From Deltaproteobacteria bacterium (GTDB lineage Bacteria > Myxococcota_A > UBA796 > JAFGLY01): a DNA stretch of 62,731 nucleotides. Below the pieces are notes generated by a model that saw nothing but the letters and a program-made list of their open reading frames with translations, had not been told where the DNA came from and made no database searches. Where the stretch lies: NCBI GenBank assembly GCA_041309225.1, contig JBFYZZ010000078.1, forward strand, positions 1 through 62,731. Reading direction: 5' to 3'. A program made the translations under genes and the position numbers. Shown here piece by piece: positions 12,423 to 58,566 of the stretch; within the stretch, counting starts at the first letter, position 1, and each line of letters begins with the position of its first letter.

Positions 12423-12427
12423 GGCGG

Positions 12428-15062: not shown

Positions 15063-15063
15063 C

Positions 15064-21530: not shown

Positions 21531-21533
21531 GCC

Positions 21534-28739: not shown

Positions 28740-28742
28740 GCC

Positions 28743-28916
28743 ATGGCTCCCACGACCGAGACGTTCCGGTGCATGGCCTGCGGCCACGAGTACGAGGAGC
28801 TCGTGGAGAAGGGCGTGGACCGGGAGCGGCAGTGCCCCCGCTGTCGCTCCAACAGCATCCGCCAGCTCAAGCGGAAGCCCGCGCCGGACGCGGGCGCCGG
28901 GGGATCGGCGACATGA
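28743..28916 (+). CDS. FmdB-type zinc-ribbon mini-protein (57 aa)
   Basis: Not in the supplied ORF track. Hand translation: [57 protein letters not shown]. CxxC...CxxC ribbon. Starts 4 nt after the hdrA stop, and its stop overlaps the next start (ATGA). Confidence 0.55.
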
Positions 28917-41086: not shown

Positions 41087-41413
41087 GGGGGTCCTCGGGC
41101 GATCGACGGGCGCGTATCACGGGCCGGCGCGCCGTGGGCCCCCCCGATCCGGCCGATGAAGCGGTGCTCAGCGACTTTGGCCCGTGCAGGCGTATCTTCC
41201 CCGCACACACTCGCGCGCGCGTGGGGGGATGCTATGTACCGACCCCGCGAGGGCAGCCGTCCGGCGGACCACGCGGACCCCGTCCTGCCAGCGAGGTACC
41301 CCCGCACCACCCCCTCCGACGATGCGCGACCCGGCCCCGTCGGGCCGCGTGTCCGGCGGGTACAGGAGGACGCCTTGGAGCCCCTTCTCCCGGCGATTCG
41401 CATCGAGATCGGA

Positions 41414-41956: not shown

Positions 41957-42819
41957 GAACGTACGCGTACTTCCCCGGCTGCTCGCTGAAAGCCACGGCG
42001 ACCCCCTACGAGACCTCGCTCCTCGACGTGGCCGGAGCGCTCGACGTCGAGTTCCGGGAGCTCGACGACTGGAACTGCTGCGGCGCCACCGCCTACTTCT
42101 CGATCCGCGAGACGCTCTCCCACGCCATCTCGGCCCGCAACCTCGCGATCGCCGAGAAGGGGGGGCTCGACCTGGTGGCGCCCTGCAGCGCCTGCTACCT
42201 CGGCCTCTCCAAGACGAACCACTACCTGCAGGAGTTCCCGGAGCTCAAGCGCCGGGTGGACGGGGCCCTCGCCGCGGGAGGGCTCGCCTACGGCGGCTCC
42301 GTTCGCGTCCGCCACGCCCTCGAGGTCTTCGTCCAGGACGTGGGCATCGACGCCATCGAGGATCGCGTCAGGAAGCCGCTCGATGACCTCAAGGTCGCGG
42401 GCTACGCGGGCTGCCAGATGGTGCGGCCCTACGGCTTCGACGACGCCGAGGTCCCGGTGGTGCTCGACCGGCTCACCGCCGCGCTCGGGGGGACCCCCGT
42501 CGACTTCCCGCTCGCCTCCCGCTGCTGCGGGGGCGCCCAGGTCATGACCAACCAGCCCGTCGCCCTGGCCATGTGCCGCGAGCTCCTCGCCTGCGCCGAG
42601 GGTCGCAAGGCCGACGTGATCGTCACCACCTGCCCCCTGTGCCACATGAACCTCGACCTCTTCCAGGGCAAGGTGAACGCCGCCTTCGGCACGTCGTTCC
42701 ACATCCCGGTCGTCTTCTTCACTCAGCTGATGGCCCTGGCCTTCGGGCTCCAGCGCACCGGCATCGACAAGAACATCGTCCCGGCGAGCCCCACGCTCGT
42801 TGGCCTGATGGCGGGGTAG
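41953..42819 (+). CDS. hdrB: Heterodisulfide reductase subunit B-like (two CCG domains)
   Basis: Part of ORF 41080..42819. ATGA overlap with hdrC. Motifs YFPGCSL, WNCCGA, APCSACY, RCCGGA and TTCPLCHMN. Confidence 0.85.
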   Translation: MRTYAYFPGCSLKATATPYETSLLDVAGALDVEFRELDDWNCCGATAYFSIRETLSHAISARNLAIAEKGGLDLVAPCSACYLGLSKTNHYLQEFPELKRRVDGALAAGGLAYGGSVRVRHALEVFVQDVGIDAIEDRVRKPLDDLKVAGYAGCQMVRPYGFDDAEVPVVLDRLTAALGGTPVDFPLASRCCGGAQVMTNQPVALAMCRELLACAEGRKADVIVTTCPLCHMNLDLFQGKVNAAFGTSFHIPVVFFTQLMALAFGLQRTGIDKNIVPASPTLVGLMAG

Positions 42820-42823
42820 TCCC

Positions 42824-44818: not shown

Positions 44819-44826
44819 GAGCGACC

Positions 44827-45279
44827 ATGTCCGACTTCGAACCCCGCATCGTGGCGTTCCTGTGCAGCTGGTGCTCCTACACGGGGGCCGACCTCGCGGG
44901 CACCAGCCGCAAGAAGTACAGGAGCAACATCATCCCCATCCGGGTGATGTGTTCGGGGCGCGTCGATCCCGAGTGGATCCTCAAGGCCTTCCGCGACGGC
45001 GCCGACGGCGTCCTCGTGTGCGGCTGCCACCCCGGCGACTGCCACTACATCAACGGCAACCACAAGACGCTCGGGCGGTACCCGGTCGTGCGGCGGATGC
45101 TCGCCCAGTTCGGCATCCACCCCGACCGCTACCGCCTGGAGTGGGTGTCCGCCGCCGAGGGTGACCGCTACGCGAAGGTGGTGGACGCCATGATCGACAC
45201 CGTCCGGGCGCTGGGGCCGCTCCGCTGGAAGGACCGGCTCGCCGCCGCCACCGACACGCTCGCGGACGCGAGGAGCTGA
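44827..45279 (+). CDS. mvhD: MvhD-like [2Fe-2S] subunit
   Basis: Part of ORF 42952..45279. Motifs LCSWCSYTGADLAG, VMCSGR, VCGCHPGDCHY and LEWVSAAEG. Confidence 0.85.
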   Translation: MSDFEPRIVAFLCSWCSYTGADLAGTSRKKYRSNIIPIRVMCSGRVDPEWILKAFRDGADGVLVCGCHPGDCHYINGNHKTLGRYPVVRRMLAQFGIHPDRYRLEWVSAAEGDRYAKVVDAMIDTVRALGPLRWKDRLAAATDTLADARS

Positions 45280-45281
45280 CC

Positions 45282-46244
45282 ATGGCCGAGAAGCTGCGCC
45301 TGGGCCTCTACTGGGCCGCCTCCTGCGGTGGCTGCGAGATCGCGGTGCTGGAGATCGGGGACCGGATCCTGGATCTCATCCAGGTGGCCGACATCGTGTT
45401 CTGGCCGTGCGTGATGGACTTCAAGTACGACGACGTGCGCGCCATGCCCGACGGCCACATCGACGTGGTGCTGTTCAACGGCGCGATCCGGAACTCCGAG
45501 AACGAATCCATCGCCCGCCTCCTCCGGCAGAAGTGCAAGGTGCTGGTGGCCTTCGGCTCCTGTGCGGTCGAGGGCGGCATCCCCGCGCTGGCCAACCTGT
45601 ACGCGCTCCAGTCCCTCATGGCCCGGGCCTTCACCGAGTCCGAGTCCACCGTCAATCCCGCGGGCACGGTCCCCGCCCCGGGCCACCACGTGCCCGAGGG
45701 GGAGATCGAGCTCCCGGTGATCTACCGGACGGTCCGGCGCCTTCAGGACGTCGTGCCGGTCGACTACTTCATGCCCGGCTGCCCGCCCACGGAGAAGCAG
45801 ATCTGGGCCGTGCTCCAGGCCATCGTGGCCGGCGTCCTCCCGCCCGTGGGATCCCACGTCGGTTGTGGCGATCGCAGCGTGTGCGACGAGTGCAAGCGCG
45901 AGAAGCGGCAGGTCCGGATCGAGCGCTTCCACCGTCCCCACGAGATCGTGCCCGAGGAGGGCTGGTGCCTCCTCGAGCAGGGCATCGTCTGCATGGGCAG
46001 CGCGACCCGGAGCGGTTGCGAGGCCCGCTGCCTCGATGCCAACCAGCCCTGCCGGGGCTGCTATGGCCCGGCGGGCCGAAGCATGGACCAGGGGGCGGCC
46101 ACGCTGTCCGCCGTGGGCTCGATGATCGCTGCCGACTCCATCGAGAAGGCGGAGCAGATCCTCCGGGACTTCGTGGATCCGGCCGGGACGGTCTACCGCT
46201 TCGGCATGTCGAACTCCCTCCTCGTCCGCAGGCTGGACGAGTAG
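45282..46244 (+). CDS. mvhG: [NiFe] hydrogenase small subunit (Mvh/group-3c-like)
   Basis: ORF 45282..46244. Motifs LYWAASCGGCEIAVLE, AFGSCAVEGGIP and GCPP. C-terminal Cys clusters (CDECKREK, CLLEQGIVCMGSATRSGCEARC, CRGCYGP). Confidence 0.85.
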   Translation: MAEKLRLGLYWAASCGGCEIAVLEIGDRILDLIQVADIVFWPCVMDFKYDDVRAMPDGHIDVVLFNGAIRNSENESIARLLRQKCKVLVAFGSCAVEGGIPALANLYALQSLMARAFTESESTVNPAGTVPAPGHHVPEGEIELPVIYRTVRRLQDVVPVDYFMPGCPPTEKQIWAVLQAIVAGVLPPVGSHVGCGDRSVCDECKREKRQVRIERFHRPHEIVPEEGWCLLEQGIVCMGSATRSGCEARCLDANQPCRGCYGPAGRSMDQGAATLSAVGSMIAADSIEKAEQILRDFVDPAGTVYRFGMSNSLLVRRLDE

Positions 46245-46266
46245 TCCCGACCGAAAGGCCACTTCG

Positions 46267-47733
46267 ATGAAGAAGATCAGCATCGATCCCATCACGCGTC
46301 TCGAGGGACACGGGCGCATCGACCTCTTCCTCGACGACGCCGGCGCGCTGGTCAACGCCTACCTGGTGATCCCGGAGATCCGCGGCTTCGAGAAGTTCGC
46401 GGAGGGGCGACCGGTGGAGGAGATGCCGCGCATCACCTCGCGCATCTGCGGCGTCTGCCCCGAGGCCCACATGATGGCCGCCGCCAAGGCGGGCGACGCG
46501 GTGTACGGGATCACCCTCCCCCCCACGGCCGCCAGGATCCGCGAGATGCAGTACGCGGCCTTCTTCGTGGGCGATCACACCACCCACTTCTACGCCCTGG
46601 GCGCGCCCGACTTCGTGGTGGGACCTGGCGCCCCGGCGGCCGAGCGCAACATCCTGGGCGTCATCGGCAAGGTGGGCGTGGAGAACGGGAAGAAGGTCAT
46701 CCGGATGCGCAAGGAGGCCCACGAGGTGGCCCAGATGCTCGGCGGCAAGCCGGTGCACCCGGTCAACGCGCTCCCCGGCGGCGTGTCCCGGCGGGTCACC
46801 CCCGAGATGCAGGCCCGGCTGGTGGAGATCGGAGAGTACGCGGTCGAGTTCGCCCGGTTCACCCTGGGTGTCGTGCACGACGTGGTGCTGGCCAATCCGG
46901 CCTACGTCGATCTCATCGTGAACGGCCCCTACAACCTGAAGACCTACTCCATGGGCATGGTCGACGACCGGAACCGGACCAACTTCTACGACGGGAAGGT
47001 CCGGATCGTGGGCCCGGACGGGAAGGAGCACGGCAGGTACGCGCCCGCCGAGTACCGGGACTGGGTGGCGGAGCACGTGGAGCCGTGGTCCTACCTCAAG
47101 TTCCCGTACCTCAAGAAAGTCGGCTGGAAGGGCTTCGTGGACGGGCCCGACTCGGGGCTCTACCAGGCCACCCCGCTCTCCCGGCTCAACGTGGCCGACG
47201 GCATGGCCACACCGCTGGCCCAGGCCGAGTACCAGCGATTCTACGAGACCCTCGGCGGCAAGCCGGTCCACCACACGCTGGCCACCCACTGGGCACGCAC
47301 CATCGAGATCATGTACGCCGCCGAGCGGCTGCTGGAGCTGGCCAGGGACCCGGTCATCACCGGCCCCGACCACCGCGTCCTGCCCTCGAAGACCCCCACC
47401 GAGGGCGTGGGCATCGTGGAGGCGCCCCGGGGCACCCTCACGCACCACTACTGGACCGACGAGCGGGGCATCGTCACCAAGGCCAACCTCATCGTGGGCA
47501 CCACCAACAACCACGCGCCCATCTCGCTCGTGGTCCGCAACGCGGCGAAGGGGCTCGTGAAAGCGGGCGAGCCCGTCAGCCCCGCCGTGCTCAACCAGAT
47601 CGAGATGGCCTTCCGCTCGTTCGACCCCTGCTTCGGCTGCGCCACGCACGCCCTCCCAGGCCAGATGCCGCTCGTGATCCGGTTCCGGTCGGCCGCCGAC
47701 GGGTCGGTGCTCGACGAGTACCGGCGCGACTAG
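46267..47733 (+). CDS. mvhA: [NiFe] hydrogenase large subunit (Mvh/group-3c-like)
   Basis: ORF 46267..47733. N-terminal ITRLEGHG and L1 motif [11 protein letters not shown]-terminal L2 motif DPCFGCATH, followed by a cleavable extension. Confidence 0.9.
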
Positions 47734-47736
47734 CCC

Positions 47737-48231
47737 GTGCCGGGCGCGGTGATCCTGGGGGTGGGCAATCCCGTGCTCTCGGACGACGCCGTGGGCCTTG
47801 CGGTGGCCGGTCGCGTCCGGGAGATCCTGGGCGACGCGCCCGACGTCGCCGTGCGCGAGTCCGAGCGGGGCGGGCTCGACCTCGTCGAGCTCCTCGAGGG
47901 CGCCGACGTGGCGGTGGTGGTGGACGCCCTCCTCGATCCCGGACACCCGCCCGGGACCGTGCTGCCCCTGGACCTCGAGGAGGTCCGCACCACCACCCAC
48001 CTCCACGGCGCCCACGGCGTGGATCTCCCCACCGCCGTGTCCGTGGGGCGCCGGTTGGGGGTGGCCATGCCCGCCTCGGTCCGGATTGTGGGCGTGGTCG
48101 TGGAGGACGCCCTCACGCTGGGCGAGGGCCTCACGCCCGCCGTGGCCGCTGCGGTGGAGCCCGCGGCCCGCCTCGCCGTGGCGCTGGCCCGCCCCGGCGG
48201 GACCGGATCGACGCGCGCGCCGCGAAGCTGA
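47737..48231 (+). CDS. Hydrogenase maturation endopeptidase (HycI/HybD/FrhD family)
   Basis: ORF 47737..48231 (GTG start). Contains ILGVGNPVLSDDAVG. Sits directly after the large subunit. Confidence 0.8.
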   Translation: MPGAVILGVGNPVLSDDAVGLAVAGRVREILGDAPDVAVRESERGGLDLVELLEGADVAVVVDALLDPGHPPGTVLPLDLEEVRTTTHLHGAHGVDLPTAVSVGRRLGVAMPASVRIVGVVVEDALTLGEGLTPAVAAAVEPAARLAVALARPGGTGSTRAPRS

Positions 48232-48273
48232 TCCCGGACACGCTCCGAACCGGGAGGCGTGCCAAAAGGGAAT

Positions 48274-48318
48274 ACACTGTGTAAGCACCTTGACACAGTG
48301 TGTGCCACTTCTACATGG
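48274..48318 (+). promoter_or_regulatory. Candidate sigma-70-type promoter (TTGACA 48290..48295, TACATG 48312..48317) overlapping a 9-bp inverted repeat ACACTGTGT-N10-ACACAGTGT
   Basis: Lies in a locally AT-richer intergenic island between the protease stop (48231) and the next hdrA-like start (48393). Consensus -35 hexamer with a 16-nt spacer to a weak -10. Palindromic boxes at 48274..48282 and 48293..48301. Confidence 0.35.
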
Positions 48319-48392
48319 TCGGGCTCCCTGCACTCCGTATACTCGTCTGTCCGGACGTGGCCCGACGGGGCTGTCCGGACACCGGAGGCCCC

Positions 48393-50198
48393 GTGAGAAA
48401 AGCCGTCTTCTTCTGCCAGGTCGGCGACGAGACCCCGCTGAACGTGGACTCGGTCGCGAAGTACGCTTCCAACCTCCCGGGTGTGGAGCACGTGGAGGTG
48501 CTCGGCATCCGTCCGTCCCTGGACCCCACGCGGATCGCCGAGCGGATCCGGACCGTCCGGCTGGACCGGCTCGTGATCGCGGGCGACCAGCCCGGCTTCT
48601 TCAAGCCGGCCTTCACCCGCGCCATGGACCTCGCCAGCTGCTCGCCCCTGGAGGTCTTCCTCGCGCCCTTCGCGGCGTGGGGCGCCCCCGCCGAGGACGC
48701 CACCGAGCGGGCCAAGGCCATCGTGGCGTGCGCGTGCCAGGGCGTGCCCTTCACCCTGGCCGCCGTCCCGGCGTCCACGCCCGTCCACCCCGCCACCCTC
48801 GTCATCGGGGGCGGCGTGGCGGGGATCCAGGCGGCGCTCGAGATCGCCGACGCCGGCAAGCAGGTGCACCTCGTCGAGCGCACCGGCACGCTGGGCGGTC
48901 ACATGGCGATGTTCGACAAGACCTTCCCGACGCTCGACTGCGCGGCCTGCATCCTCACCCCCAAGATGGTGGCGGTGGGCCAGCACCCGATGATCAACCT
49001 CATGTCCTGGTCCGACGTGGAGGAGGTCTCGGGGACCCCCGGCGCCTACAAGGTCCGCATCCTACGGAAGGCCCGGAGGGTGGACGTCTCGGCCTGCGTG
49101 GCCTGCGGGATCTGCGCCGAGGTCTGCCCCGTGACCGTGCCGAGCGAGTTCGACGCCGGCATCTCCACGCGGAAGGCCGTGTACGTCCCCTTCCCCCAGG
49201 CGGTCCCGAACGCCTACCTGGTGGATCCGGCCTCCTGCACCTGGGTCCTGAGCGGGGGCCAGAAGTGTGGCGCCTGTGCGCGCAAGTGCCCCAAGGACTG
49301 CATCGACCTGAGCGAGAAGGACCGCGTAGAGGAGGTGGAGGTGGGGAGCATCATCCTGGCCACGGGCTACGAGGTCTTCGACGCGAAGCGGATCGAACGG
49401 TACGGCTACGGCGTCCTGCCCAACGTGCTCACGGCCCTCGAGTTCGAGCGGCTCACCAACGCGTCCGGGCCGACCGGCGGCCGCATCGTCACGCGCACGA
49501 AGCGGTACAACAAGCGCACCAAGCGGGACGAGTGGGTGTTCCAGGCCGACGGGCCCAGCCCGCGGAGCGTGGCCATCATCCACTGCGTCGGATCGCGGGA
49601 CAGCGCCTACAACGCATACTGCTCTCGCGTCTGCTGCATGTACTCCCTCAAGTTCGCCCACCTGGTGCGGGAGAAGCTGCCCGAGGCCGCGTGCTACGAG
49701 TTCTACATCGACATGCGGGCCTTCGGGAAGGGCTACGAGGAGTTCGCCGAGCGCATCAAGGCGGAGGGGACCCACGTGGTCCGGGGTCGCACCGCCTCGG
49801 TCCAGATGGTGGGGGAGGAGATGGTGGTCCGCGGTGAGGACATCCTCGAGGACCGCCTGCTCGAGTTCCCCGTGGACATGGTGATCCTCGCCGTGGGGCT
49901 CGTGCCGGCCTCGGGCACGGACGAGCTGGCGCGTACGCTCGAGGTGCAGCGCGATCCCGACGGCTGGTTCGCCGAATTCGACTACGACGGCAATCCCACC
50001 GAGACCCAGCGCGGGGGGGTGTACGTGGCCGGGATGTGCCAGGGCCCGAAGGACATCCCCGACACCGTGGCCCAGGCCTCGGCCGCCGCGGCCGGCGTCC
50101 TGAGGGCCATCTCCTCCGGGCGGGGCACCGGGTCCCTGTCCAGCCTCTCGCTGTCGGTCATCGAGGCGAGGGCCAGGACCCTCGCGCGGTCCACCTGA
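48393..50198 (+). CDS. HdrA/QmoA-like flavoprotein (keeps DCAAC motif, degenerate N-terminal Cys domain)
   Basis: Part of ORF 48300..50198, GTG 48393. [16 protein letters not shown] and FPTLDCAACILTPKMV present. The N-domain has lost 3 of its 4 Cys (FFCQVGDE / VLGIRPS / VIAGDQP). Ferredoxin motifs CVACGICAEVCP and CGACARKCP. Confidence 0.8.
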   Translation: MRKAVFFCQVGDETPLNVDSVAKYASNLPGVEHVEVLGIRPSLDPTRIAERIRTVRLDRLVIAGDQPGFFKPAFTRAMDLASCSPLEVFLAPFAAWGAPAEDATERAKAIVACACQGVPFTLAAVPASTPVHPATLVIGGGVAGIQAALEIADAGKQVHLVERTGTLGGHMAMFDKTFPTLDCAACILTPKMVAVGQHPMINLMSWSDVEEVSGTPGAYKVRILRKARRVDVSACVACGICAEVCPVTVPSEFDAGISTRKAVYVPFPQAVPNAYLVDPASCTWVLSGGQKCGACARKCPKDCIDLSEKDRVEEVEVGSIILATGYEVFDAKRIERYGYGVLPNVLTALEFERLTNASGPTGGRIVTRTKRYNKRTKRDEWVFQADGPSPRSVAIIHCVGSRDSAYNAYCSRVCCMYSLKFAHLVREKLPEAACYEFYIDMRAFGKGYEEFAERIKAEGTHVVRGRTASVQMVGEEMVVRGEDILEDRLLEFPVDMVILAVGLVPASGTDELARTLEVQRDPDGWFAEFDYDGNPTETQRGGVYVAGMCQGPKDIPDTVAQASAAAAGVLRAISSGRGTGSLSSLSLSVIEARARTLARST

Positions 50199-50199
50199 G

Positions 50200-51357
50200 G
50201 TGCACATGGCCATCCGCGTCAATCCCCTCCTCATCGACGACCTCGAACGGTACGGCGCCGAGGACGTCCAGAAGTGCTACCACTGCGGCAACTGCTCGGC
50301 GGTCTGCCCGCACACCGACGAGACCTTCCTCTTCCCCCGCCGCTCCATGCGCCTCCTGCAGATGGGGCTCGAGCGGCGGATCGAGGGGTCGCTCGAGCCC
50401 TGGCTCTGCTACTACTGTGGCCAGTGCTCCGACCAGTGCCCGCGCGACGCCGAGCCGGGCGAGACCATGATGAGCCTCCGCCGCTGGCTCACGTCCCGCT
50501 ACGACTTCACCGGCATCTCCAGGCTCTTCTACCGCTCCCCGAAGGCCGAGGTCCTGGCCATGGCCGGCCTGGGGCTCGCCGTGGGCATCGGCCTGGTGGC
50601 CTGGGGGCTGGGCACGGGCGGTGACATCCGCATCTACGACGGCCCGGGCGCGTTCCTCAGGAGCGAGCACGTCCATCGCTTCGACTGGGGGATGGCCGCG
50701 GTGCTCGTGGGCCTCCTGGGCACCAACGCCGTCCGGATGTGGTGGTTCACCATGTACCGGGACAAGGAGTCCCGGGTCCCGCTCTCCCTCTACATCAAGC
50801 ACGTCCTCACGCTGCCCTACCAGTTCTTCACCCAGAAGCGGTATGCCGAGTGCGGCGAACGGAAGCCCTGGCTGCTCCACCTGGGCCTGATGCTCTCCTA
50901 CCTCACGATGCTCGTGCTCATCATGTTCTTCCTGGGCACGATGCAGAGCGACACGTGGCACTGGCAGGCCCACGCGTTCGGCTACCTGGCCACGGTGGGG
51001 CTGCTGGGGGCCACCGCCTGGATGATCCGGGGCCGCGTTCGGAAGCAGACGCCGCTCCACCGCCATTCGCACGAGTCCGACTGGGTGTTCCTGGTCCAAC
51101 TCTTCGCGGTGGCCTTCACCGGCATCCTCCAGCACGTCCTCCACCGCGCGGGCCAGCCGCTGGCCGGGAACGTCGTCTACGTGATCCACATGATGGTGGC
51201 GGTGCCGATGCTGGTCCTCGAGGTGCCCTTCAGCAAGTGGGCCCACCTCGTCTACCGGCCTCTCGCCATGTACTTCGCGGCCATGCGTCGCGAGGTGCTG
51301 CGGGCGCGGGCCCCCGCCCCCCTCCCTGCCGGCGCTCGGCGCGTCCAGGCGGCCTGA
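50200..51357 (+). CDS. QmoC/HdrE-like subunit: N-terminal 2x[4Fe-4S] HdrC-like domain fused to a multi-TM cytochrome-b-type membrane domain
   Basis: ORF 50200..51357. Motifs CYHCGNCSAVCP and CYYCGQCSDQCP. About 5-6 hydrophobic helices follow, carrying several His (HVHRFDWG, HLGLMLSY, HWQAHAFGY, LQHVLH, VIHMMV). Confidence 0.75.
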   Translation: MHMAIRVNPLLIDDLERYGAEDVQKCYHCGNCSAVCPHTDETFLFPRRSMRLLQMGLERRIEGSLEPWLCYYCGQCSDQCPRDAEPGETMMSLRRWLTSRYDFTGISRLFYRSPKAEVLAMAGLGLAVGIGLVAWGLGTGGDIRIYDGPGAFLRSEHVHRFDWGMAAVLVGLLGTNAVRMWWFTMYRDKESRVPLSLYIKHVLTLPYQFFTQKRYAECGERKPWLLHLGLMLSYLTMLVLIMFFLGTMQSDTWHWQAHAFGYLATVGLLGATAWMIRGRVRKQTPLHRHSHESDWVFLVQLFAVAFTGILQHVLHRAGQPLAGNVVYVIHMMVAVPMLVLEVPFSKWAHLVYRPLAMYFAAMRREVLRARAPAPLPAGARRVQAA

Positions 51358-51368
51358 CAGGAGCTCCC

Positions 51369-53093
51369 ATGCAGAGCTGCAAGATCGGCGTCTACATCTG
51401 CCAGTGCGGGACCAACATCGCCAAGATGGTCGACTGCGAGGCCCTGGTGGCGTTCGCGGAAACCCTTCCGGAGGTGGCCCTCGCCAAGACCTACAAGTAC
51501 ATGTGCTCCAACCCGGGTCAGGACATGATCGTCCAGGACATCCAGGCCAACGGGCTGGACCGGGTGGTGGTGGCGGCCTGCAGCCCCCGGATGCACGAGC
51601 GGACGTTCCGGAACGCGCTCCAGGTGGCGGGCCTGAACCCGTACTTCTTCGAGATGGCCAACATCCGGGAGCACTGCTCCTGGGTCCACGACGACCCGGT
51701 GGCGGCCACCCAGAAGGCCAAGGCCCTCGTGCGGGGCGCCGTGCTCCGGGTGGCTCGGCACGAGGCGCTCGAGCGCAAGACCGTGGACATGTGCCCCGAG
51801 GTGCTCGTCATCGGGGGCGGGATCGCCGGCCTCACCGCTGCCCTCGACATCGCCGACGCCGGCCACCGCGTGCACCTGGTCGAGCGGCAGGGCTCGCTGG
51901 GGGGGAACCTCGCGCGGATCGACCTCACCGCACCCTTCCTCAACGCGGCGCGGGACCTCCTCACGGAGCGCATCACCCGGGTCACCGAGAGCGAACGGAT
52001 CGACGTGATGCTCCACTCCCGGGTGGTGAACCTCGATGGGTTCATCGGGAACTACCGGGCCACGGTGGAGGTCCGCGACGCCGACGGCCTGCCACGAAAG
52101 ACCGAGTTCCTCGTCGGCAACGTGATCGTCGCCACCGGCTACCAGGAGTTCGAGGCCAGCCGGATCACCCACTACGGGTACGGCAAGCTCCCCAACGTGG
52201 TCACCTCGTTCGAGTTCGAGCTGATGCTCCGCCACGGGCGGATCCAGATGGCGGACGGCCACCTCCCCCGGTTCGTGAGCATCATCCACTGCGTGGGCAG
52301 CCGCAGCCAGGAGTTCCATGGCTACTGCTCCCGCGTCTGCTGCATGACCGCCCTGAAGTACGCCCACGAGGTCCGGTCCGCCATCCCCGGCTGCCACGTG
52401 TCCGACATCTACATCGACATGCATGCGTTCGGGAAGGGCCACGAGGACTTCTACCGAAGGTCGTCCGAGGTGAAGACCCTGTTCCTCATGTACCGGAAGG
52501 GGGACCGGCCGGTCATCCGCCGGGCGGATCCGGGCGACACCTGCGACATGCTGATCGAGGTGAACGAGCAGCTCTCCGGCGAGACCATCGAGATCCCGGC
52601 CGACCTGGTGGTCCTCATGGTGGGGATGGAGGCCCGCTCCGACGCCCACGAGGTGGCCCGCCTCGTGAACATCAGCCAGGACAAGGAGGGCTGGTTCATC
52701 GAGAGCCATCCCAAGCTCGACCCGGTGGCCACCACCACCGACGGCGTCTACATCGCGGGCACCTGCGCGGCGCCCAAGGACATCCCCGACAACGTGGCCC
52801 AGGCCCGGGCGTCGGCCGCCCGGATCCTGGCCAAGGTGGCGCGGGGCAGGATCGAGGTGGACGCCGTGTACGCCGAGGTGGACGAGGCCCGCTGCTCGGG
52901 CTGCCGCATCTGCAACGACCTGTGCCCCTACAGCGCCATCGAGTTCGACGCCGTCAAGAAGGTCAGCCGCGTCATCAGCGCGGTGTGCAAGGCCTGCGGG
53001 GCCTGCGGGGCGGCCTGCCCGTCCGGCGCCATCAAGGCGCGCCACTTCACCGACGCCCAGATCTTCGCCCAGATCGAGGGGGTACTGCTATGA
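51369..53093 (+). CDS. HdrA/QmoB-like flavoprotein (intact N-terminal Cys domain, lacks the DCxxC motif)
   Basis: Part of ORF 50739..53093. Motifs ICQCGTNIA / YMCSNPG / VAACSP and [16 protein letters not shown]. The DCxxC position reads GGNLARIDLTAPF. C-terminal motifs CSGCRICNDLCP and CKACGACGAACP. Confidence 0.8.
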   Translation: MQSCKIGVYICQCGTNIAKMVDCEALVAFAETLPEVALAKTYKYMCSNPGQDMIVQDIQANGLDRVVVAACSPRMHERTFRNALQVAGLNPYFFEMANIREHCSWVHDDPVAATQKAKALVRGAVLRVARHEALERKTVDMCPEVLVIGGGIAGLTAALDIADAGHRVHLVERQGSLGGNLARIDLTAPFLNAARDLLTERITRVTESERIDVMLHSRVVNLDGFIGNYRATVEVRDADGLPRKTEFLVGNVIVATGYQEFEASRITHYGYGKLPNVVTSFEFELMLRHGRIQMADGHLPRFVSIIHCVGSRSQEFHGYCSRVCCMTALKYAHEVRSAIPGCHVSDIYIDMHAFGKGHEDFYRRSSEVKTLFLMYRKGDRPVIRRADPGDTCDMLIEVNEQLSGETIEIPADLVVLMVGMEARSDAHEVARLVNISQDKEGWFIESHPKLDPVATTTDGVYIAGTCAAPKDIPDNVAQARASAARILAKVARGRIEVDAVYAEVDEARCSGCRICNDLCPYSAIEFDAVKKVSRVISAVCKACGACGAACPSGAIKARHFTDAQIFAQIEGVLL

Positions 53094-53524
53094 GCTTCGA
53101 GCCCAGGATCGTCGGCTTCCTGTGCAACTGGTGCTCGTACACGGGAGCCGACCTCGCCGGCACGAGCCGCATCCACTACCCGCCGAACGTCCACATCATC
53201 CGGGTGATGTGCTCGGCCCGCATCGATCCCACCTTCGTGCTCAAGGCGCTCGCCCAGGGGGCCGACGGGGTGCTCGTGTGCGGCTGCCACCCGGGCGACT
53301 GCCACTACACCGACGGCAACTACAAGGCCATGCGGCGCTTCCCGCTCCTCAAGCGGGTGCTCGACGCCTACGGCCTGGAGAAGGACCGCGTGCGCCTGGA
53401 GTGGGTCAGCGCGAGCGAGGGGCAGCGGTTCGCCGACGTGGTGAGCGACATGACCGAGCGGATCCGCCCGCTGGGGCCGTGCCGCATCCGTCCCGGCTTG
53501 CAGGCCGACATGGCCGAGAGGTGA
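53090..53524 (+). CDS. mvhD: MvhD-like [2Fe-2S] subunit
   Basis: Part of ORF 51404..53524, with ATGA overlap. Motifs LCNWCSYTGADLAG, VMCSAR, VCGCHPGDCHY and LEWVSASEG. Confidence 0.85.
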   Translation: MSFEPRIVGFLCNWCSYTGADLAGTSRIHYPPNVHIIRVMCSARIDPTFVLKALAQGADGVLVCGCHPGDCHYTDGNYKAMRRFPLLKRVLDAYGLEKDRVRLEWVSASEGQRFADVVSDMTERIRPLGPCRIRPGLQADMAER

Positions 53525-53527
53525 GGC

Positions 53528-54496
53528 ATGAGTGAGACGAAAAAGCTCCAGATCGCCCTCTACTGGGGCGCCGCCTGCGGTGGCTGCGACGTGGCGGTCC
53601 TCGACACCGACGCATTCATCCTGGACGTGGCCGCGCTGGCCGACATCCGCCTCTGGCCCATCGCTGTGGACGGCAAGTACGCCGACATCGAGGCGCTGGC
53701 GGACGGCGAGCTCGACGTCGCGTTCTTCAACGGCGCGGTCCGGAACAGCGAGAACGAGCACATCGCCCGCCTCCTCAGGCAGAAGAGCCGGATCCTGGTG
53801 GCCTTCGGATCCTGCGCCCACCTGGGCGGCATCCCCGGCCTGGCCAACTTCTTCACACGCGACGAGATCATCCGCACTGCCTACCTCGACAACCCGTCCA
53901 TCGAGCCGGGCAACCGGACGGTCCCCACCCCCGAGACGCGTGTGAACGGCCACACGCTCGACATCCCGAAGTTCTACCAGCGAGTCTTCCCGCTCGAAGC
54001 GGTGGTCCCGGTCGACTACTTCCTTCCGGGCTGCCCGCCGGCCCCCGACCAGGTCCGGGCGGCCATCCTGGCCATCGCCACCGGCAACCTCCCGGCGCGC
54101 GGCTCGGTGGTGGGCGCCTCCGAGCGGGCCGTGTGCGAGGACTGCAAGCGGGAGAAGAGCGAGAAGAAGATCGGGCGGTTCTACCGGCCGTGGGAGATCA
54201 TCCAGGATCCGACGAAGTGCCTCCTCGAGCAGGGCATCGTCTGCCTGGGGCCGGCCACGCGCTCGGGCTGTGGGGTGCGCTGCCCGAACACGGGGCAGGG
54301 CTGTCGGGGCTGCTACGGACCCCTTCCCGGCGTCGTGGACCAGGGGGCCAAGGTGATCTCCTCCCTGGCCTCCGTCATCGACAGCCGGGATCCCGAGGAG
54401 ATCGAACGGATTCTGGACGGAATCCCGGATTTCACGGCCATCGCCTACCGCTTCGGACTCCCCGCTTCGCTGCTCCAGAGGAGGATTCGGGCATGA
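53528..54496 (+). CDS. mvhG: [NiFe] hydrogenase small subunit (second Mvh/group-3c-like copy)
   Basis: ORF 53528..54496. Motifs LYWGAACGGCDVAVLD, AFGSCAHLGGIP and GCPP. C-terminal clusters CEDCKREK, CLLEQGIVCLGPATRSGCGVRC and CRGCYGP. Confidence 0.85.
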   Translation: MSETKKLQIALYWGAACGGCDVAVLDTDAFILDVAALADIRLWPIAVDGKYADIEALADGELDVAFFNGAVRNSENEHIARLLRQKSRILVAFGSCAHLGGIPGLANFFTRDEIIRTAYLDNPSIEPGNRTVPTPETRVNGHTLDIPKFYQRVFPLEAVVPVDYFLPGCPPAPDQVRAAILAIATGNLPARGSVVGASERAVCEDCKREKSEKKIGRFYRPWEIIQDPTKCLLEQGIVCLGPATRSGCGVRCPNTGQGCRGCYGPLPGVVDQGAKVISSLASVIDSRDPEEIERILDGIPDFTAIAYRFGLPASLLQRRIRA

Positions 54497-55959
54497 CCCG
54501 GACCATCAGCATCGACCCGATCACCCGCCTCGAGGGGCACGGCAAGATCGAGATCTTCCTCGACGACGAGGGTGCCGTCGAGGACTGCTACTTCCAGATC
54601 CCGGAGCTGAGGGGCTTCGAGCGGTTCGTGGTGGGCCGTCCCCTCGAGGAGCTGCCCCGCATCGTCACGCGCATCTGCGGTGTCTGCCCCGCCAGCCACC
54701 ACATGGCCAGCGCCAAGGCCGTGGACGCCTGCTTCGGCGACGAGTGCCCCCCCGTGGCCCACAAGCTGCGGGACATGTACTACCACGCCCACTACATCCA
54801 CAGTCACATCGCCCACTTCTACGCCCTCGCCGCCCCCGACTTCGTCTGCGGACCCGACGCCGATCCCGCGATCCGGAACATCCTCGGCGTGGTGGCGAAG
54901 GTGGGGCTCGAGATCGGCGGCCGCGTGATCCAGGCGCGGTCTCTCGCCCAGCGGATCCAGGCCATCCTGGGCGGGCGGACCACCCACCTGGTCTGGTGCC
55001 TCCCCGGAGGCGTGGCCAAGGGACTCTCCGCCCAGGAGCTGGAGGAGATCAAGCCCATGGTGAAGGAGCTCGGCGCCTTCGCCGACTTCTCCCTCCACCT
55101 CTTCCGCCAGGTCGTGTTGGGCAACGCCCAGTACGTGGACCTCATCCTGAACGGCCCCTACACGCTCGACGTGCACAACATGGGGCTCGTGGACCGCGAC
55201 CTGGCGGTCACGTTCTACGACGGGGACGTCCGGGTCGTGGACTTCCTGGGCCGGGAGATCTGCCGCTACCCGCCCCGGGCCTACGCCGAGCACGTGGCGG
55301 AGCACGTCGAGCCCTGGTCCTACCTCAAGTTCCCCTACCTGAAGAAGCGTGGATGGAAGGGGTTCACGGAGGGCCTGGACTCCAGCCTCTACTGCGCCAC
55401 GCCGCTCTCGCGCCTCAACGTGGCCGAGCGCATGGCCACGCCGCGCGCCCAGGAGGCCCGGGAGGAGATGTACGCCACGCTCGGCGGGCGTCCCTGCCGC
55501 GCCCTCCTCGCCAACCACTGGGCCCGGCTCGTGGAGATGGTGCAGAACGCCGAGATGCTGGAGCGGTACTGCGCGGACCCCGAGATCACGAGCGACCGGT
55601 TCCGCGTGGTGCCCAGCCGCATCACCGGGGAGGGCGTGGGGATCGTCGAGGCCATGCGCGGGACGCTCACGCACCACTACACCTGCGACGAGAACGGCAT
55701 CTGCACCAGCGCGAACCTGATCGTGGGGACCACCAACAACAACGGGCCGATCCACATGGTCACGAAGAAGGTGGCCCAGGCCATGATCCAGCCCGGGAAG
55801 GACCCCGATCCGGCGATCCTCAACATGATCGAGATGGCCTTCCGGGCGTTCGATCCTTGCTTCTCGTGCGCGACCCATAGCCTTCCCGGACAGATGCCGC
55901 TCGAGGTCCAGGTCTGGAAGGGCGGCGAGCGGACCTGGCACGCGAAGCGCGGCCCCTAG
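54493..55959 (+). CDS. mvhA: [NiFe] hydrogenase large subunit (second Mvh/group-3c-like copy)
   Basis: Part of ORF 54133..55959, with ATGA overlap. Motifs [18 protein letters not shown] and DPCFSCATH. 488 aa, the same length as the first copy. Confidence 0.9.
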   Translation: MTRTISIDPITRLEGHGKIEIFLDDEGAVEDCYFQIPELRGFERFVVGRPLEELPRIVTRICGVCPASHHMASAKAVDACFGDECPPVAHKLRDMYYHAHYIHSHIAHFYALAAPDFVCGPDADPAIRNILGVVAKVGLEIGGRVIQARSLAQRIQAILGGRTTHLVWCLPGGVAKGLSAQELEEIKPMVKELGAFADFSLHLFRQVVLGNAQYVDLILNGPYTLDVHNMGLVDRDLAVTFYDGDVRVVDFLGREICRYPPRAYAEHVAEHVEPWSYLKFPYLKKRGWKGFTEGLDSSLYCATPLSRLNVAERMATPRAQEAREEMYATLGGRPCRALLANHWARLVEMVQNAEMLERYCADPEITSDRFRVVPSRITGEGVGIVEAMRGTLTHHYTCDENGICTSANLIVGTTNNNGPIHMVTKKVAQAMIQPGKDPDPAILNMIEMAFRAFDPCFSCATHSLPGQMPLEVQVWKGGERTWHAKRGP

Positions 55960-55965
55960 GACGCC

Positions 55966-56514
55966 ATGCCCGACAGCCGCCCGCCGCGCATCCTCGTCCT
56001 CGGCATGGGCAACCCCATCCTCTCGGACGACGCGGTGGGCATCCGCCTCGCACGCGCGATGGGCGCCCGGTGGGGGGCCCGACCCGACCTGGACGTGGTG
56101 GAGGAGTGTTCGGTGGGCGGCCTCGAGATCCTGGACGTCCTGGGCGGGTACGACCGCGTGGTGGTGCTCGACGCCATTCGCACGCGGGGCGGGATACCGG
56201 GCGCCTGGTACCGGTTCACCGCAGAGGCACTCCGGGAGACCCGCAACCTGCGCAACGTCCACGACGTCAACTTCGCCACGGCACTCGCCCTGGGCCGCGC
56301 CCTCGGCCTCCATCTGCCCCCCGACGACGAGATCCACGTGTTCGCCGTCGAGATCGAAGACGACCTCACCTTCTCCGAGCGCATGACCGAGGCGCTCGAG
56401 GCTGCCTGGTCACGGTTCTCCAGCGAGATCCTGACCGCCGCCCGCGATCTCATGGAGCCCGGGGCTCCCCACCCGAAGGAGGCCGACCATGGCCCATGTA
56501 CTCCTGGTCGATGA
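55966..56514 (+). CDS. Hydrogenase maturation endopeptidase (second copy)
   Basis: ORF 55966..56514. Contains ILVLGMGNPILSDDAVG. The 3' end overlaps the next gene by 26 nt. Confidence 0.8.
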   Translation: MPDSRPPRILVLGMGNPILSDDAVGIRLARAMGARWGARPDLDVVEECSVGGLEILDVLGGYDRVVVLDAIRTRGGIPGAWYRFTAEALRETRNLRNVHDVNFATALALGRALGLHLPPDDEIHVFAVEIEDDLTFSERMTEALEAAWSRFSSEILTAARDLMEPGAPHPKEADHGPCTPGR

Positions 56515-56881
56515 CGACGCGGACCTCCTGGCCGCGAACCGGACGTTCCTCGAGGGATTCGGGCATCGCGTGAGCACCGCCCGAAGCGGGCAGGAGGCCT
56601 GGGATCGCCTGGCCGAACTCGCGCCCGACGTGCTCGTCCTCGACTGCATGATGGAGGAGTTCACCTCCGGGTTCGAACTCGCCCAGGACATCGCCCGCGT
56701 GCACCCCCGCCTCCCCATCGTCATGCTCACCGCCGTGGGCGAGCAGATGAGCCGGGCCTGGCGGTTCAGCCCCGAGGCCGACGGCCACTGGCTGCCCGTG
56801 ACCCGATTCCTGGAGAAGCCGGTGTCCCCCGAGGCCCTCGACCGGGAGATCCGGGCCGTGCTGGCCCAGGCGGGTGGCTAG
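56489..56881 (+). CDS. Stand-alone response-regulator receiver domain (CheY-like)
   Basis: ORF 56489..56881. Motifs VLLVDDD, DVLVLDCMM (phospho-acceptor Asp context), MLTA and FLEKP. Confidence 0.8.
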   Translation: MAHVLLVDDDADLLAANRTFLEGFGHRVSTARSGQEAWDRLAELAPDVLVLDCMMEEFTSGFELAQDIARVHPRLPIVMLTAVGEQMSRAWRFSPEADGHWLPVTRFLEKPVSPEALDREIRAVLAQAGG

Positions 56882-56898
56882 CGCCGCCGGGATCGCCC

Positions 56899-58566
56899 GT
56901 GCCCGAACCCCGCGTCCTGGTGCTCCACGCCAACCCGCTCGGCGGCGCCGTGCCCCCCTACGGCGCCGAGCGGGTGGCCCAGGCCCTGGTGGGGGCCGGA
57001 TGCGCCGTCCGGATCTCGACCCCGTTCTGGGCCGCCCGACCGCTCCCCGCCTTCGAGCGGGACCTCTCCTGGGAGCCCGGACTCGTCGCGCTCTCCCTCC
57101 GGAACGCGGACGACGCGCTGGTGGTCCGCTCCCCGCGGGGCCGGGGGCCCATCGACACGCGCTCGTGCCTGCCCGCGGTCCGTCCCCTCGTGGCGGCGGC
57201 CCGGGCTCGGGGGGTGCCCGTCCTGGCGGGGGGCGCCGGGATCGCAGCCCTCGGCCCGGCCGGCCTCTCCGCCCTCGGGGTGGATTTCGGGGTGGTCGGC
57301 CCGGCCGACGACCTCCTCCTCCGGATGGGCCGCTCGCTCGCCTCGGGCACGCCGTTCCCGGTCTGCCTTCCGCACGATCCTCGCGTGATCGCTGCGTCCC
57401 GGGCCCCGGTTCCTCCGGAGGGCGCCCCGCCCCTCCCCCCCGACGCCGGCCTCCAGCCGCCCGGATCCACCCCGCGCCTCGGCGAGGGGCTGGCGCTCGT
57501 CCGGTTCCGGGGCGGCCGCCTCCCCGTGTCCACCGCCGCCGGGTGCGACCGCCGGTGCTGGTTCTGCGTGGAGGGCGCCTTCCTCGGGGGCCACGTGCGG
57601 CCCCGGCCGCCCCAGGAGGTGGCAGCGGAGGTGGCCAGGCTCGCGCGGGCCGGGTTCCCCCGGATCTGGCTGGCCGCGTCCGAGCTCAACGTGCCTGACG
57701 CCGCCCACGCCACGGCCGTGCTCAGGGCGGTGGCCCGCGCGGGGGTGCGGGTCGACCTGCGCGCGTTCCTGCACGCCGGCGCCGTGGACGACGACCTGCT
57801 CTCCGCCCTCGAGGACGTGGGGATGGATCCCCAGGACCTCGGCTTCGAGTTCGGACACCTCGATCCGGACCTCCTGGCCCGGGGCGCAGGCCCGGCCCCC
57901 CGTGTCGCCGTGGACCGCCTCGTGGAGACCTGGCTGCGGCGCGGGTACCGAATGCTCGGCGGCACCGTGCTCCTCGGTGGCCACCCCGCCGAGACCTGGG
58001 ACACGGTGGACACCGCCCTCGAGGCGGCGCAGGCCTTCGACGCGGCCCTGCCCGGTGGCTTCGGCCTGTCGTTCAGCGCGGGCGCCCGGGTCTACCCGGC
58101 GGCTCCCCTGGGACGGTGGGTGACGGCCCGGCCCGGGGAGGCCCGCCCCGACCTGTACGGTGGCAGACCGGGAGACCTGGCCTCCCCCGTCGTCTACTGC
58201 CGGCCGGGCCCCCCTCGGGAGCTCCTGGACCACGTCCTCCGGGGCCTCGCGGCCCTGCGCGGGCCGGTGGCGCCGCTCAACGCCACCGCACCGCTCCGCC
58301 CGGCCGCCCGGCGGGCCGAGGCGCTCGTGGATCGCTCGGTCCTCGCCGCGAGGGCAGGCCACACCAGCACCGCGCTGCGCGCGCTCCGGGCCGCGATCCG
58401 CCTCGATCCCGACCACCGGGACGCCCTTCGCCACCTCGCCCTCCTCCTCGCCAACGTGCGCGGCGATCGCGATGGCGCCCGGGACGCGCTCCACCGCCTC
58501 CTCCGCCTCGTGTCCGGCGAGGCCGCCACCGAGGTGGAGACCGCGCTCGCGATGCTGGAGGGATAG
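56899..58566 (+). CDS. Radical SAM protein with N-terminal B12-binding-like domain and C-terminal TPR-like tail
   Basis: ORF 56899..58566 (GTG start). CX3CX2C motif present as GCDRRCWFC. Flavodoxin/B12-like N-terminal fold pattern (VLVLHANP...GLVALSLRN). C-terminal ALRALRAAIRLDPDHRDALRHLALLL. Confidence 0.65.
   Translation: MPEPRVLVLHANPLGGAVPPYGAERVAQALVGAGCAVRISTPFWAARPLPAFERDLSWEPGLVALSLRNADDALVVRSPRGRGPIDTRSCLPAVRPLVAAARARGVPVLAGGAGIAALGPAGLSALGVDFGVVGPADDLLLRMGRSLASGTPFPVCLPHDPRVIAASRAPVPPEGAPPLPPDAGLQPPGSTPRLGEGLALVRFRGGRLPVSTAAGCDRRCWFCVEGAFLGGHVRPRPPQEVAAEVARLARAGFPRIWLAASELNVPDAAHATAVLRAVARAGVRVDLRAFLHAGAVDDDLLSALEDVGMDPQDLGFEFGHLDPDLLARGAGPAPRVAVDRLVETWLRRGYRMLGGTVLLGGHPAETWDTVDTALEAAQAFDAALPGGFGLSFSAGARVYPAAPLGRWVTARPGEARPDLYGGRPGDLASPVVYCRPGPPRELLDHVLRGLAALRGPVAPLNATAPLRPAARRAEALVDRSVLAARAGHTSTALRALRAAIRLDPDHRDALRHLALLLANVRGDRDGARDALHRLLRLVSGEAATEVETALAMLEG

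Follow-up and report, generated by a model that had tools for sequence, protein, structure and literature searches.

What does a bacterial group-3c [NiFe]-hydrogenase reduce when its operon holds no gene for HdrB? The question is raised by a stretch of DNA of 62,731 nucleotides from a Deltaproteobacteria bacterium (GCA_041309225.1, contig JBFYZZ010000078.1; hereafter the window), in which seven consecutive forward-strand genes (48393-56514) encode, in this order, an HdrA-like flavoprotein (HdrA1), a relative of the membrane subunit QmoC, a second HdrA-like flavoprotein (HdrA2), the adaptor MvhD, the hydrogenase small and large subunits MvhG and MvhA, and a maturation protease. A first-pass annotation, made from the letters alone, had read these genes as a complex that couples H2 oxidation to the quinone pool. 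The comparisons presented here make it moderately probable that the seven genes encode one membrane-anchored complex, in which electrons from H2 would be bifurcated to menaquinone (MK) and ferredoxin (Fd); that its HdrA1-QmoC-HdrA2(-MvhD) part represents a pan-bacterial, modular, quinone-linked bifurcation core is plausible, if short of probable. The idea is not new, the first-pass interpretation being an independent rediscovery of a hypothesis already published for methanogenic Archaeoglobi; what seems undescribed so far is the bacterial breadth and the modular HdrA1-QmoC-HdrA2 core.

The seven-gene operon is real and intact. All seven open reading frames (ORFs) are uninterrupted on translation, an independent gene caller that works on G+C at third codon positions (GC3) returns the identical seven genes, and their products are assigned with Pfam and NCBIfam profiles (Table 1), all of which bears out the gene order of the first-pass annotation; the G+C content of the window, about 70-75%, leaves mechanical lists of ORFs crowded. 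As the same order recurs in dozens of unrelated genomes, the arrangement is far beyond chance. Most of the junctions stand as first given (11 nt at 51357/51369, ATGA overlaps at 53090 and 54493, 3 nt at 53524/53528, 6 nt at 55959/55966), but not the 1 nt at 50198/50200: QmoC almost certainly starts at the ATG at 50206 and not at the GTG at 50200, because the database protein (P0001) and 24 of 24 aligned homologues start with MAIRVNP. The gap between hdrA1 and qmoC is thus 7 nt, and a GAGGTG motif lies directly upstream of this ATG. As had been claimed, Pfam finds no CCG-domain (HdrB) protein within these genes, the only such protein of Hdr type nearby belonging to a separate upstream module, and no apr or sat gene, nor any dsr gene, among the window ORFs scanned, which comprise all but some of the smaller ones.

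Subunits and cofactors of the operon

QmoC is the subunit that would carry electrons into the membrane. It aligns end to end with the NCBIfam model NF038018 (residues 12-359 on positions 6-360 of 360) and is 55-57% identical over its full length to the QmoC of an aprB-aprA-x-qmoA-qmoB-qmoC cluster from an Anaeromyxobacteraceae metagenome-assembled genome (MAG; L054, JBGQLS010000015.1, 2889-11143). In a neighbour-joining tree of 164 sequences, apr-linked QmoCs (L054, L084) nest within the mvh-linked clade on short internal branches. Together, these results confirm the product as a true member of the QmoC family. Its 100 N-terminal residues resemble HdrC (7bkb_C matches residues 21-96 at 3.7e-12), and the eight ligands of its two CxxCxxCxxxC motifs (C24/27/30/34 and C68/71/74/78) are 98-99% conserved among 86 superfamily sequences; in a sequence search of the PDB, HdrC and ferredoxin-like proteins are the only matches, all to residues 12-96.

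For the membrane part, AlphaFold2, run on an alignment of 25 sequences (mean predicted local distance difference test, pLDDT, 73.9), bears out the multiple transmembrane (TM) segments first noted, with six helices at 112-136, 153-184, 220-246, 253-279, 290-314 and 318-342, followed by a C-terminal helix. Block averages over ten residues lie at about 66-96 in the membrane part and below 50 in the N-terminal Fe-S domain. Loop charges fit the positive-inside rule, with the N-terminus inside and the Fe-S domain cytoplasmic. Conserved histidines, the absence of which the first-pass annotation had named as grounds against its reading, are retained: H225 (cytoplasmic end of TM3), H328 (TM6, outer half) and H347 (beyond TM6, cytoplasmic side) show 94-98% conservation in the 86 superfamily sequences, and three more, located where TM2 (H157), TM4 (H256) and TM5 (H313) have their outer ends, are invariant or nearly so in the clade (H157 reaches 57% superfamily-wide; H256 and H313 are conserved within the clade only). 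To judge from these positions, the set would be enough for a proximal haem, ligated by H225 and H347, and a distal one, ligated by H328 and one of the outer histidines. QmoC is thus presumed to be a di-haem b, quinone-interacting anchor, for which the label 'cytochrome b' rests on homology to Desulfovibrio QmoC; that protein carries two b haems that are reduced by quinols, and is the only QmoC in which haem b and a reaction with quinol are known from experiment (PMC3333476, citing Pires 2003).

The superfamily also includes a full-length protein from a cultured Gram-positive sulfate reducer, Desulfofundulus thermobenzoicus (P0130, WP_152946805.1; 365 bits against the family profile). Often, qmoC is said to be missing from Gram-positive sulfate reducers.

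The two HdrA-like proteins have divided the domains of a canonical HdrA between them. Both have the FAD-proximal cluster (FAD, flavin adenine dinucleotide), which reads CSRVCC in HdrA1. Beyond it, HdrA1 retains the FAD and DCAAC motifs and the 2x[4Fe-4S] ferredoxin insert, but has neither cysteine ligands in its N-terminal domain nor a ferredoxin domain at the C-terminus; in HdrA2, the four cysteines of an N-terminal [4Fe-4S] domain and a 2x[4Fe-4S] ferredoxin domain at the C-terminus are present, and the inserted domain and the DCAAC motif are missing. On domain comparison, these losses are complementary and mirror those of QmoA and QmoB. What is kept is strictly conserved: C183, C186, C235/238/241/245, C282/292/295/299 and C398/410/414/415 are invariant in 69 orthologues of HdrA1, and C11, C13, C46, C71, C308/320/324/325, C509/512/515/519 and C540/543/546/550 in 65 of HdrA2. 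Median identity across phyla is 67% for HdrA1 and 69% for HdrA2. Each is 47% identical to the canonical HdrA encoded upstream (multiple alignment), the two share 34-41% over aligned segments, and against the apr-type QmoA and QmoB of L054 they reach about 30% (tblastn) or 28-35% (multiple alignment). MvhD, with five cysteines invariant in 62 orthologues (C12, C15, C41, C66, C71), matches positions 647-774 of the 777-position NCBIfam model for the HdrA2 fusion, which spans hdrA2 and mvhD together, and in the QmoB of L054 (749 aa) the MvhD domain is fused; by this comparison, HdrA2 and the separate MvhD together correspond to the architecture of QmoB and of the HdrA2 fusion. The prerequisites of bifurcation that can be seen are FAD-binding motifs, FAD-proximal cluster cysteines in both HdrAs, and two separate Fe-S exit branches.

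The hydrogenase had been described as a cytoplasmic one of group-3c type, and this holds, the class being taken from the closest models and structures: VhuA is the best NCBIfam model for MvhA, both of whose cysteine motifs for the NiFe site are present (RICGVC and DPCFSC; C62, C65, C456 and C459 are invariant in 59 orthologues), its closest solved relatives are subunits A of F420-non-reducing/Mvh hydrogenase (9sw2_F, 4.3e-112; 5odc_F), and it is accompanied by an MvhD of family PF02662 and by an MvhG in which 12 cysteines are invariant in 53 orthologues, enough for three [4Fe-4S] clusters. MvhG is read as cytoplasmic because its N-terminus has no obvious twin-arginine translocation (Tat) signal, and MvhA carries a C-terminal extension for proteolytic maturation. 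Across phyla, MvhA has a median identity of 79%, against 56% to its upstream paralogue.

An unbroken chain of cofactors can thus be drawn from the NiFe site to the membrane, with a second branch that ends at the inserted ferredoxin domain of HdrA1. Along this chain, the cytoplasmic MvhAG would oxidise H2 and pass electrons via MvhD into a heterodimer-like pair of HdrA1 and HdrA2, with the QmoB-like HdrA2 as the probable entry subunit. The electron pair would be split at the HdrA flavin or flavins, the high-potential electron reaching membrane menaquinone by way of QmoC (first its HdrC-like 2x[4Fe-4S] domain, then two b haems), and the low-potential electron passing through the inserted domain of HdrA1 to ferredoxin. 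The proposed net reaction would be 2 H2 + MK + 2 Fd(ox) -> MKH2 + 2 Fd(red) + 2 H+, in which QmoC and menaquinone would take the role that HdrBC and the heterodisulfide of coenzymes M and B (CoM-S-S-CoB) play in Mvh-HdrABC. The potentials are -414 mV for H2, about -74 mV for menaquinone and about -450 to -500 mV for ferredoxin, with CoM-S-S-CoB in a comparable range; on these standard values the reaction would be comfortably exergonic overall, comparable to the heterodisulfide-driven one. We infer the unity of the complex, its haems and quinone binding (from Desulfovibrio QmoC), bifurcation, acceptors and direction, and likewise the membrane face at which the quinone would react; on this face it depends whether proton-motive force is spent or conserved.

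Distribution, modular variants and known relatives

Relatives of QmoC are numerous, with at least 1,956 in the protein collection, the top 120 of which are all 60-72% identical, and at least 588 loci in a scan of one genome per species. When proteins are clustered at 50% identity, in a library that holds no genomic context, 259 clusters match at E < 1e-30, and the mvh-linked clade is reduced to little more than a single representative of these. Synteny was read from the best 80 of the at least 588 loci, all 80 of them bacterial. HdrA1-QmoC-HdrA2 occurs together with MvhD, MvhG and MvhA in 58 of these 80, and a further three (L020, L021, L052) keep QmoC-HdrA2-MvhDGA and have lost the hdrA1 side to a contig end, so that qmoC adjoins mvhDGA, as the first-pass annotation had suggested checking, in about 61. 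In most syntenic loci the protease gene follows mvhA. The hosts span at least ten bacterial phyla and include Acidobacteriota, Actinomycetota (Thermoleophilia, Gaiellales), Myxococcota/'Deltaproteobacteria', Krumholzibacteriota, Aminicenantes and Bacteroidota, as well as Latescibacterota, Planctomycetota, Sumerlaeota, Leptospirales and Eisenbacteria. Bacteroidales have a permuted form, with the same genes and mvhDGA upstream. On a metagenome contig of 656 kb, the same order is followed by hypA, a cobW-family gene (probably hypB), hypF, hypC and hypD, and hdrBC is absent there.

Within 10 kb, hdrBC is likewise absent from most of the syntenic loci, which leaves QmoC as the sole candidate for the exit module. 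A second hdrCBA-mvhDGA module flanks the QmoC module, in either orientation, in only about 6-8 other loci of the best 80 (L027, L031, L039, L056, L060, L064; partial copies in L042 and L069), which points to a QmoC module that is autonomous.

The hydrogenase itself is not a constant part. In two loci (L006, L007) the HdrA1-QmoC-HdrA2-MvhD core occurs without mvhGA; in the former (11097-16158), core and MvhD are followed by a gene for a molybdopterin oxidoreductase resembling formate dehydrogenase (FDH), which may be split by a stop or selenocysteine (Sec) codon at about 14135-14530. In L051 (4903-12877) and its relatives, again without mvhGA, MvhD, two Fe-S proteins and an NAD/FAD-binding protein of DHODB type precede the core. 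Since mvhGA is replaced in these variants, the conserved unit is an HdrA1-QmoC-HdrA2 core with exchangeable donor modules, following the same logic as HdrABC, for which donor swapping is known. The MAG with the apr-linked cluster also holds an mvh-type copy with a QmoC of its own (L013).

A distinct sub-clade is formed by five Actinomycetes MAGs (L047, L065, L066, L080, L082). Their QmoC (56-59% identical) occurs (e.g. L065 4880-11167) after a 965-aa protein and a single HdrA-like protein of 660 aa (about 37% to HdrA2), without mvhGA and HdrA1.

The closest known system is archaeal. A cluster of MvhAGD, two HdrA and QmoC has been described in methanogenic Archaeoglobi, in Ca. Methanoglobus nevadensis and Ca. 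M. hypatiae (Buessecker et al., bioRxiv 10.1101/2022.12.01.518715, out in ISME J 2023 as cited in PMC12008871; Lynes et al., 10.1101/2023.09.08.556235); in the latter it is reported at 995-2,431 RPKM (reads per kilobase per million), is named Mvh-Qmo-Hdr, and is hypothesised to bifurcate H2 to menaquinone and ferredoxin (10.1101/2023.09.08.556235). Matched by its published description, it has the same parts list as the operon of the window (MvhA/G/D, two HdrA, one of them QmoB-like, and QmoC as a fusion of HdrC and cytochrome b) and the same proposed reaction. HdrB, AprAB, Sat and DsrAB are reported absent from the archaeal genomes, and the window module is likewise without hdrB; it differs in being bacterial, in DNA of about 72% GC, and in having a canonical hdrCBA-mvhDGA module alongside. 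Although these papers call the cluster 'unique', it is found here in at least ten bacterial phyla. In the full-text literature only the Archaeoglobi cluster was found described and no bacterial version, a weak negative given that most subscription journals lie outside the coverage.

With QmoABC of sulfate reducers and sulfur oxidisers (Desulfovibrio, Archaeoglobus, Chlorobi), the module shares two HdrA-related flavoproteins and a membrane QmoC, HdrA1 corresponding to QmoA and HdrA2 with MvhD to QmoB. It differs in its order, which is A-C-B and not A-B-C; in MvhD, which is a separate gene and not the C-terminal domain of QmoB; in its HdrAs, which are closer to canonical HdrA than to apr-type QmoA and QmoB; in its linkage to mvhGA and the protease and not to aprBA/sat; and in the expected flow, which would run towards quinone and not from quinol to APS (adenosine 5'-phosphosulfate) reductase. 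As apr, sat and dsr are neither found among the scanned window ORFs nor adjacent in the inspected loci, the module is not filed as a functional Qmo complex. A hydrogenase had been considered as a possible third partner of Qmo by Ramos et al. (2012), who found no partner gene co-located with sat-aprBA-qmoABC (PMC3333476).

With MvhADG-HdrABC of methanogens (5ODC, 7BKB, 8RVV), it shares the group-3c hydrogenase, the MvhD adaptor, the HdrA core and the HdrC-type 2x[4Fe-4S] relay. However, it has no HdrB, with its CCG domains and non-cubane clusters, and so no heterodisulfide site; its HdrC-like domain continues, within one protein, into a membrane domain of six helices; and in place of an HdrA homodimer there are two paralogues that have diverged and share out the Fe-S domains. 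FixABCX/EtfABCX, which split the electrons of NADH between quinone and ferredoxin or flavodoxin, follow the same logic with unrelated proteins (Etf, Etf-QO), and offer an analogy of mechanism only.

The upstream module, a candidate control region and other genes of the window

The first-pass annotation does not mention that the operon is directly preceded, in the same orientation, by a complete and canonical hdrCBA-mvhDGA-protease module (41375-48231). Its HdrCBA lies 5.6 kb from the QmoC module, and the gap between the two modules is 161 nt. That the QmoC module borrows the HdrBC encoded there, in a single super-operon of 15 kb, is unlikely to be required, hdrBC not being near most of the syntenic loci; this reading is weakened as well by a conserved palindrome in the 161-nt gap, which points to a separate control region. 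The core of this inverted repeat (TACACTGTGTAAGC...ACACAGTGTGT, also given as TACACTGTGT...ACACAGTGT) recurs without change in L005, a genome related at 90%, where the flanking intergenic bases have diverged and a TATACT motif before hdrA1 is also kept; as that genome has no upstream hdrCBA-mvhDGA module, the control region would belong to the QmoC module. The repeat and a second inverted pair that follows it (Table 1) are candidate operator or promoter elements. A scan of 40900-57500 for consensus promoters and terminators returns zero sites of either kind, which is uninformative in DNA of about 70% GC.

Table 1. Genes and intergenic elements of the window discussed in the text (positions in the window; scores from Pfam and NCBIfam profiles, structures from the PDB).
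Feature	Position	Strand	Assignment and remarks
HdrA1 (QmoA-like)	48393-50198	+	601 aa; NF040770 HdrA2 model 530 bits; best solved relative 5odc_A, 4.3e-133
QmoC	50206-51357	+	NF038018 end to end, 176.6 bits
HdrA2 (QmoB-like)	51369-53093	+	HdrA-like, C-terminal 2x[4Fe-4S] domain; NF040770 590.7 bits in two stretches
MvhD, [2Fe-2S] adaptor	53090-53524	+	PF02662 1.9e-56
MvhG, [NiFe]-hydrogenase small subunit	53528-54496	+	NF045875 VhuG 210.9 bits; PF01058
MvhA, group-3c-type [NiFe]-hydrogenase large subunit	54493-55959	+	NF041785 VhuA 365.8 bits; solved relatives 9sw2_F, 5odc_F
Hydrogenase maturation endopeptidase, dedicated	55966-56514	+	TIGR00072 2e-24; PF01750
Receiver-domain response regulator, stand-alone	56489-56881	+	PF00072 2.4e-19; also called in L002
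Inverted repeat, candidate operator or promoter element	48269-48306		arms GGAATACACTGTGT / ACACAGTGTGTGCC, 10 nt apart; in the gap before hdrA1
Second inverted pair, candidate operator or promoter element	48348-48381		TGTCCGGAC / GTCCGGACA; before hdrA1
hdrC, canonical module	41375-41956	+	Pfam, translation
hdrB, canonical module	41953-42819	+	CCG domain; Pfam, translation; PF02754 CCG in L001 called genes
hdrA, canonical module	42824-44818	+	Pfam, translation
mvhD, canonical module	44827-45279	+	Pfam
mvhG, canonical module	45282-46244	+	Pfam
mvhA, canonical module	46267-47733	+	Pfam
Protease, canonical module	47737-48231	+	Pfam
Histidine kinase and sigma-54-dependent response regulator	31707-34447	-	pair of genes
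2-oxoacid:ferredoxin oxidoreductase subunits	18923-21530	+	
Fer4 / pyridine-nucleotide-disulfide-oxidoreductase / Fer4 protein	21738-24683	+	981 aa
CCG-domain protein	25243-26280	+	
HdrA-MvhD fusion	26277-28739	+	820 aa; one in-frame TGA (26895-26897)
HdrD-like Fer4 + CCG protein	28913-30325	+	

Downstream, the gene of a stand-alone response regulator overlaps the protease gene by 26 nt and may be co-transcribed with the QmoC module. A histidine kinase and a sigma-54-dependent response regulator are encoded on the opposite strand about 7 kb upstream of the Hdr/Mvh genes, and a comparable pair of kinase and sigma-54 activator precedes the core in L046. These kinase and regulator genes of the window may reflect regulation of the hydrogenase genes.

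A third Hdr-related cluster occupies 18576-30325 on the forward strand. Within its HdrA-MvhD fusion, the in-frame TGA aligns exactly with the second cysteine of the DCxxC motif of HdrA (compared sequence TFPTLDCAACILTPK) and, for this reason, is very probably a selenocysteine codon. Taken together, this cluster and both Mvh modules give the window the look of an island of genes for flavin-based bifurcation.

The proposed reaction, its alternatives and its implications

Several observations weigh against H2-driven reduction of menaquinone and ferredoxin by a single QmoC-anchored complex. The score of QmoC lies below the curated equivalog cut-off of NF038018, which is 300 bits. Superfamily-wide conservation extends to only three histidines, where two bis-His haems need four, and the candidates for the fourth ligand (H157, H256, H310 or H313) are conserved in the clade only. 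A Foldseek search of the membrane domain against the PDB returns no significant solved fold (best E = 0.76), and the Pfam family Nitrate_red_gam matches weakly in 2 of 25 family members and not in the QmoC of the window. The complete HdrCBA next door could in principle interact with the QmoC module, the sequence is silent on bifurcation at either HdrA flavin and on the membrane face of the quinone site, and the bacterial members are known from sequence alone. The cut-off is no ground to deny QmoC membership, as the genuine apr-linked QmoC of L054 also falls short of it, at 190.3 bits; it thus excludes part of the true family and seems too strict for QmoCs that are not of the Desulfovibrio type. 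As for the fold, the AlphaFold2 model and the Foldseek search neither show one of NarI/HdrE type for the membrane domain nor replace it by a different one.

The same machine could also run in reverse, confurcating menaquinol and reduced ferredoxin to H2 and thereby disposing of quinol electrons at low H2 pressure in fermenters or syntrophs. Many of the hosts belong to lineages usually described as fermentative or as anaerobic heterotrophs (Bacteroidales, Aminicenantes, Krumholzibacteriota), the 2-oxoacid:ferredoxin oxidoreductase of the window would supply the reduced ferredoxin, confurcation has been proposed for Qmo by Ramos et al. (PMC3333476), and group 3 hydrogenases are regarded as potentially bidirectional (bioRxiv 10.1101/197269, citing Greening 2016). 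The calculated mean potential of MKH2 and Fd(red), however, is about -290 mV, so that H2 would form only where its pressure is at or below roughly 10 Pa; the sequence gives no indication of direction, and the archaeal precedent has been read as H2 uptake (10.1101/2023.09.08.556235). As the principal direction, the reverse one is considered unlikely. A simple H2:menaquinone oxidoreductase, in which the HdrAs serve as electron wires or as a converter between two-electron and one-electron steps and ferredoxin is not reduced, would likewise be energetically sound, since the transfer from H2 to menaquinone is strongly exergonic by itself, and it would accord with the fact that neither HdrA1, without the N-terminal cluster, nor HdrA2, without the DCAAC motif and the inserted domain, is a complete canonical HdrA. 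It is nevertheless improbable: all eight cysteines of the inserted 2x[4Fe-4S] domain of HdrA1 are invariant in the 69 orthologues, and this is the domain which, in the Mvh-Hdr structure, we take to be the exit towards ferredoxin. Nor would two large flavoproteins be expected to be conserved across phyla to the extent seen here if they were mere wiring, and membrane-bound uptake hydrogenases manage the reduction of quinone with a far simpler set of subunits.

An end acceptor of sulfur or disulfide type is the least likely of the alternatives: either a true Qmo complex and the hydrogenase would feed an APS reductase encoded elsewhere, or the module would act jointly with the neighbouring HdrBC on a thiol/disulfide, for instance a protein resembling DsrC. 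An Mvh-type hydrogenase is listed as a possible co-donor to Qmo-Apr by Ramos et al. (PMC3333476), the QmoC clade is common to aprBA-qmoABC clusters (L054), and HdrCBA lies directly upstream in the window and adjoins the module in at least six other genomes. Yet apr, sat and dsr are not found among the scanned ORFs, no apr gene adjoins the inspected syntenic mvh-type loci, and the separate mvh-type copy, with its own QmoC, in the MAG that carries the apr-linked cluster suggests distinct roles for the two. At most loci hdrBC is more than 10 kb away or absent, and the upstream module is self-sufficient, with an HdrA, MvhDGA and protease of its own.

Bifurcation of H2 to menaquinone and ferredoxin, which is supported as far as sequence comparison reaches, remains the reading preferred here, and its principle is already in print, for two archaeal enrichments; what is added is the breadth of distribution, a conserved map of cofactors, and the modular variants. 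Bacterial group-3c hydrogenases are common in metagenomes and, also in MAG papers on lineages that carry the operon, are usually drawn as MvhADG-HdrABC acting on an unknown disulfide (e.g. PMC8092238, 10.1101/2021.04.09.439258, 10.1101/2021.03.22.436540). If the proposed reaction is correct, much of the bacterial group-3c class would be wired to the membrane quinone pool, with ferredoxin reduced at the expense of quinone, and would constitute the second known type of quinone-plus-ferredoxin bifurcation besides Fix/EtfABCX. Models of H2 metabolism, of ferredoxin supply (for CO2 fixation, N2 fixation and 2-oxoacid synthases) and of energy conservation would change for Acidobacteriota, Actinomycetota, Myxococcota, Bacteroidota and several candidate phyla. 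If the pan-bacterial core is real as well, it would, with MvhGA, be the true form of a large part of the hydrogenases annotated by routine as 'group 3c Mvh-HdrABC' in bacteria of soil, sediment and gut, and menaquinone would be the missing high-potential acceptor of organisms without CoM-S-S-CoB; modules of FDH-like or NAD(P)H type would let the same core serve formate or pyridine nucleotides alike, and in syntrophs it may run backwards, lifting quinol electrons to H2. For surveys of MAGs, annotations of qmoC type (and QmoB-like ones) outside apr clusters would then be unreliable markers of sulfate reduction. What bacterial group-3c hydrogenases reduce has thereby become a directly testable question.

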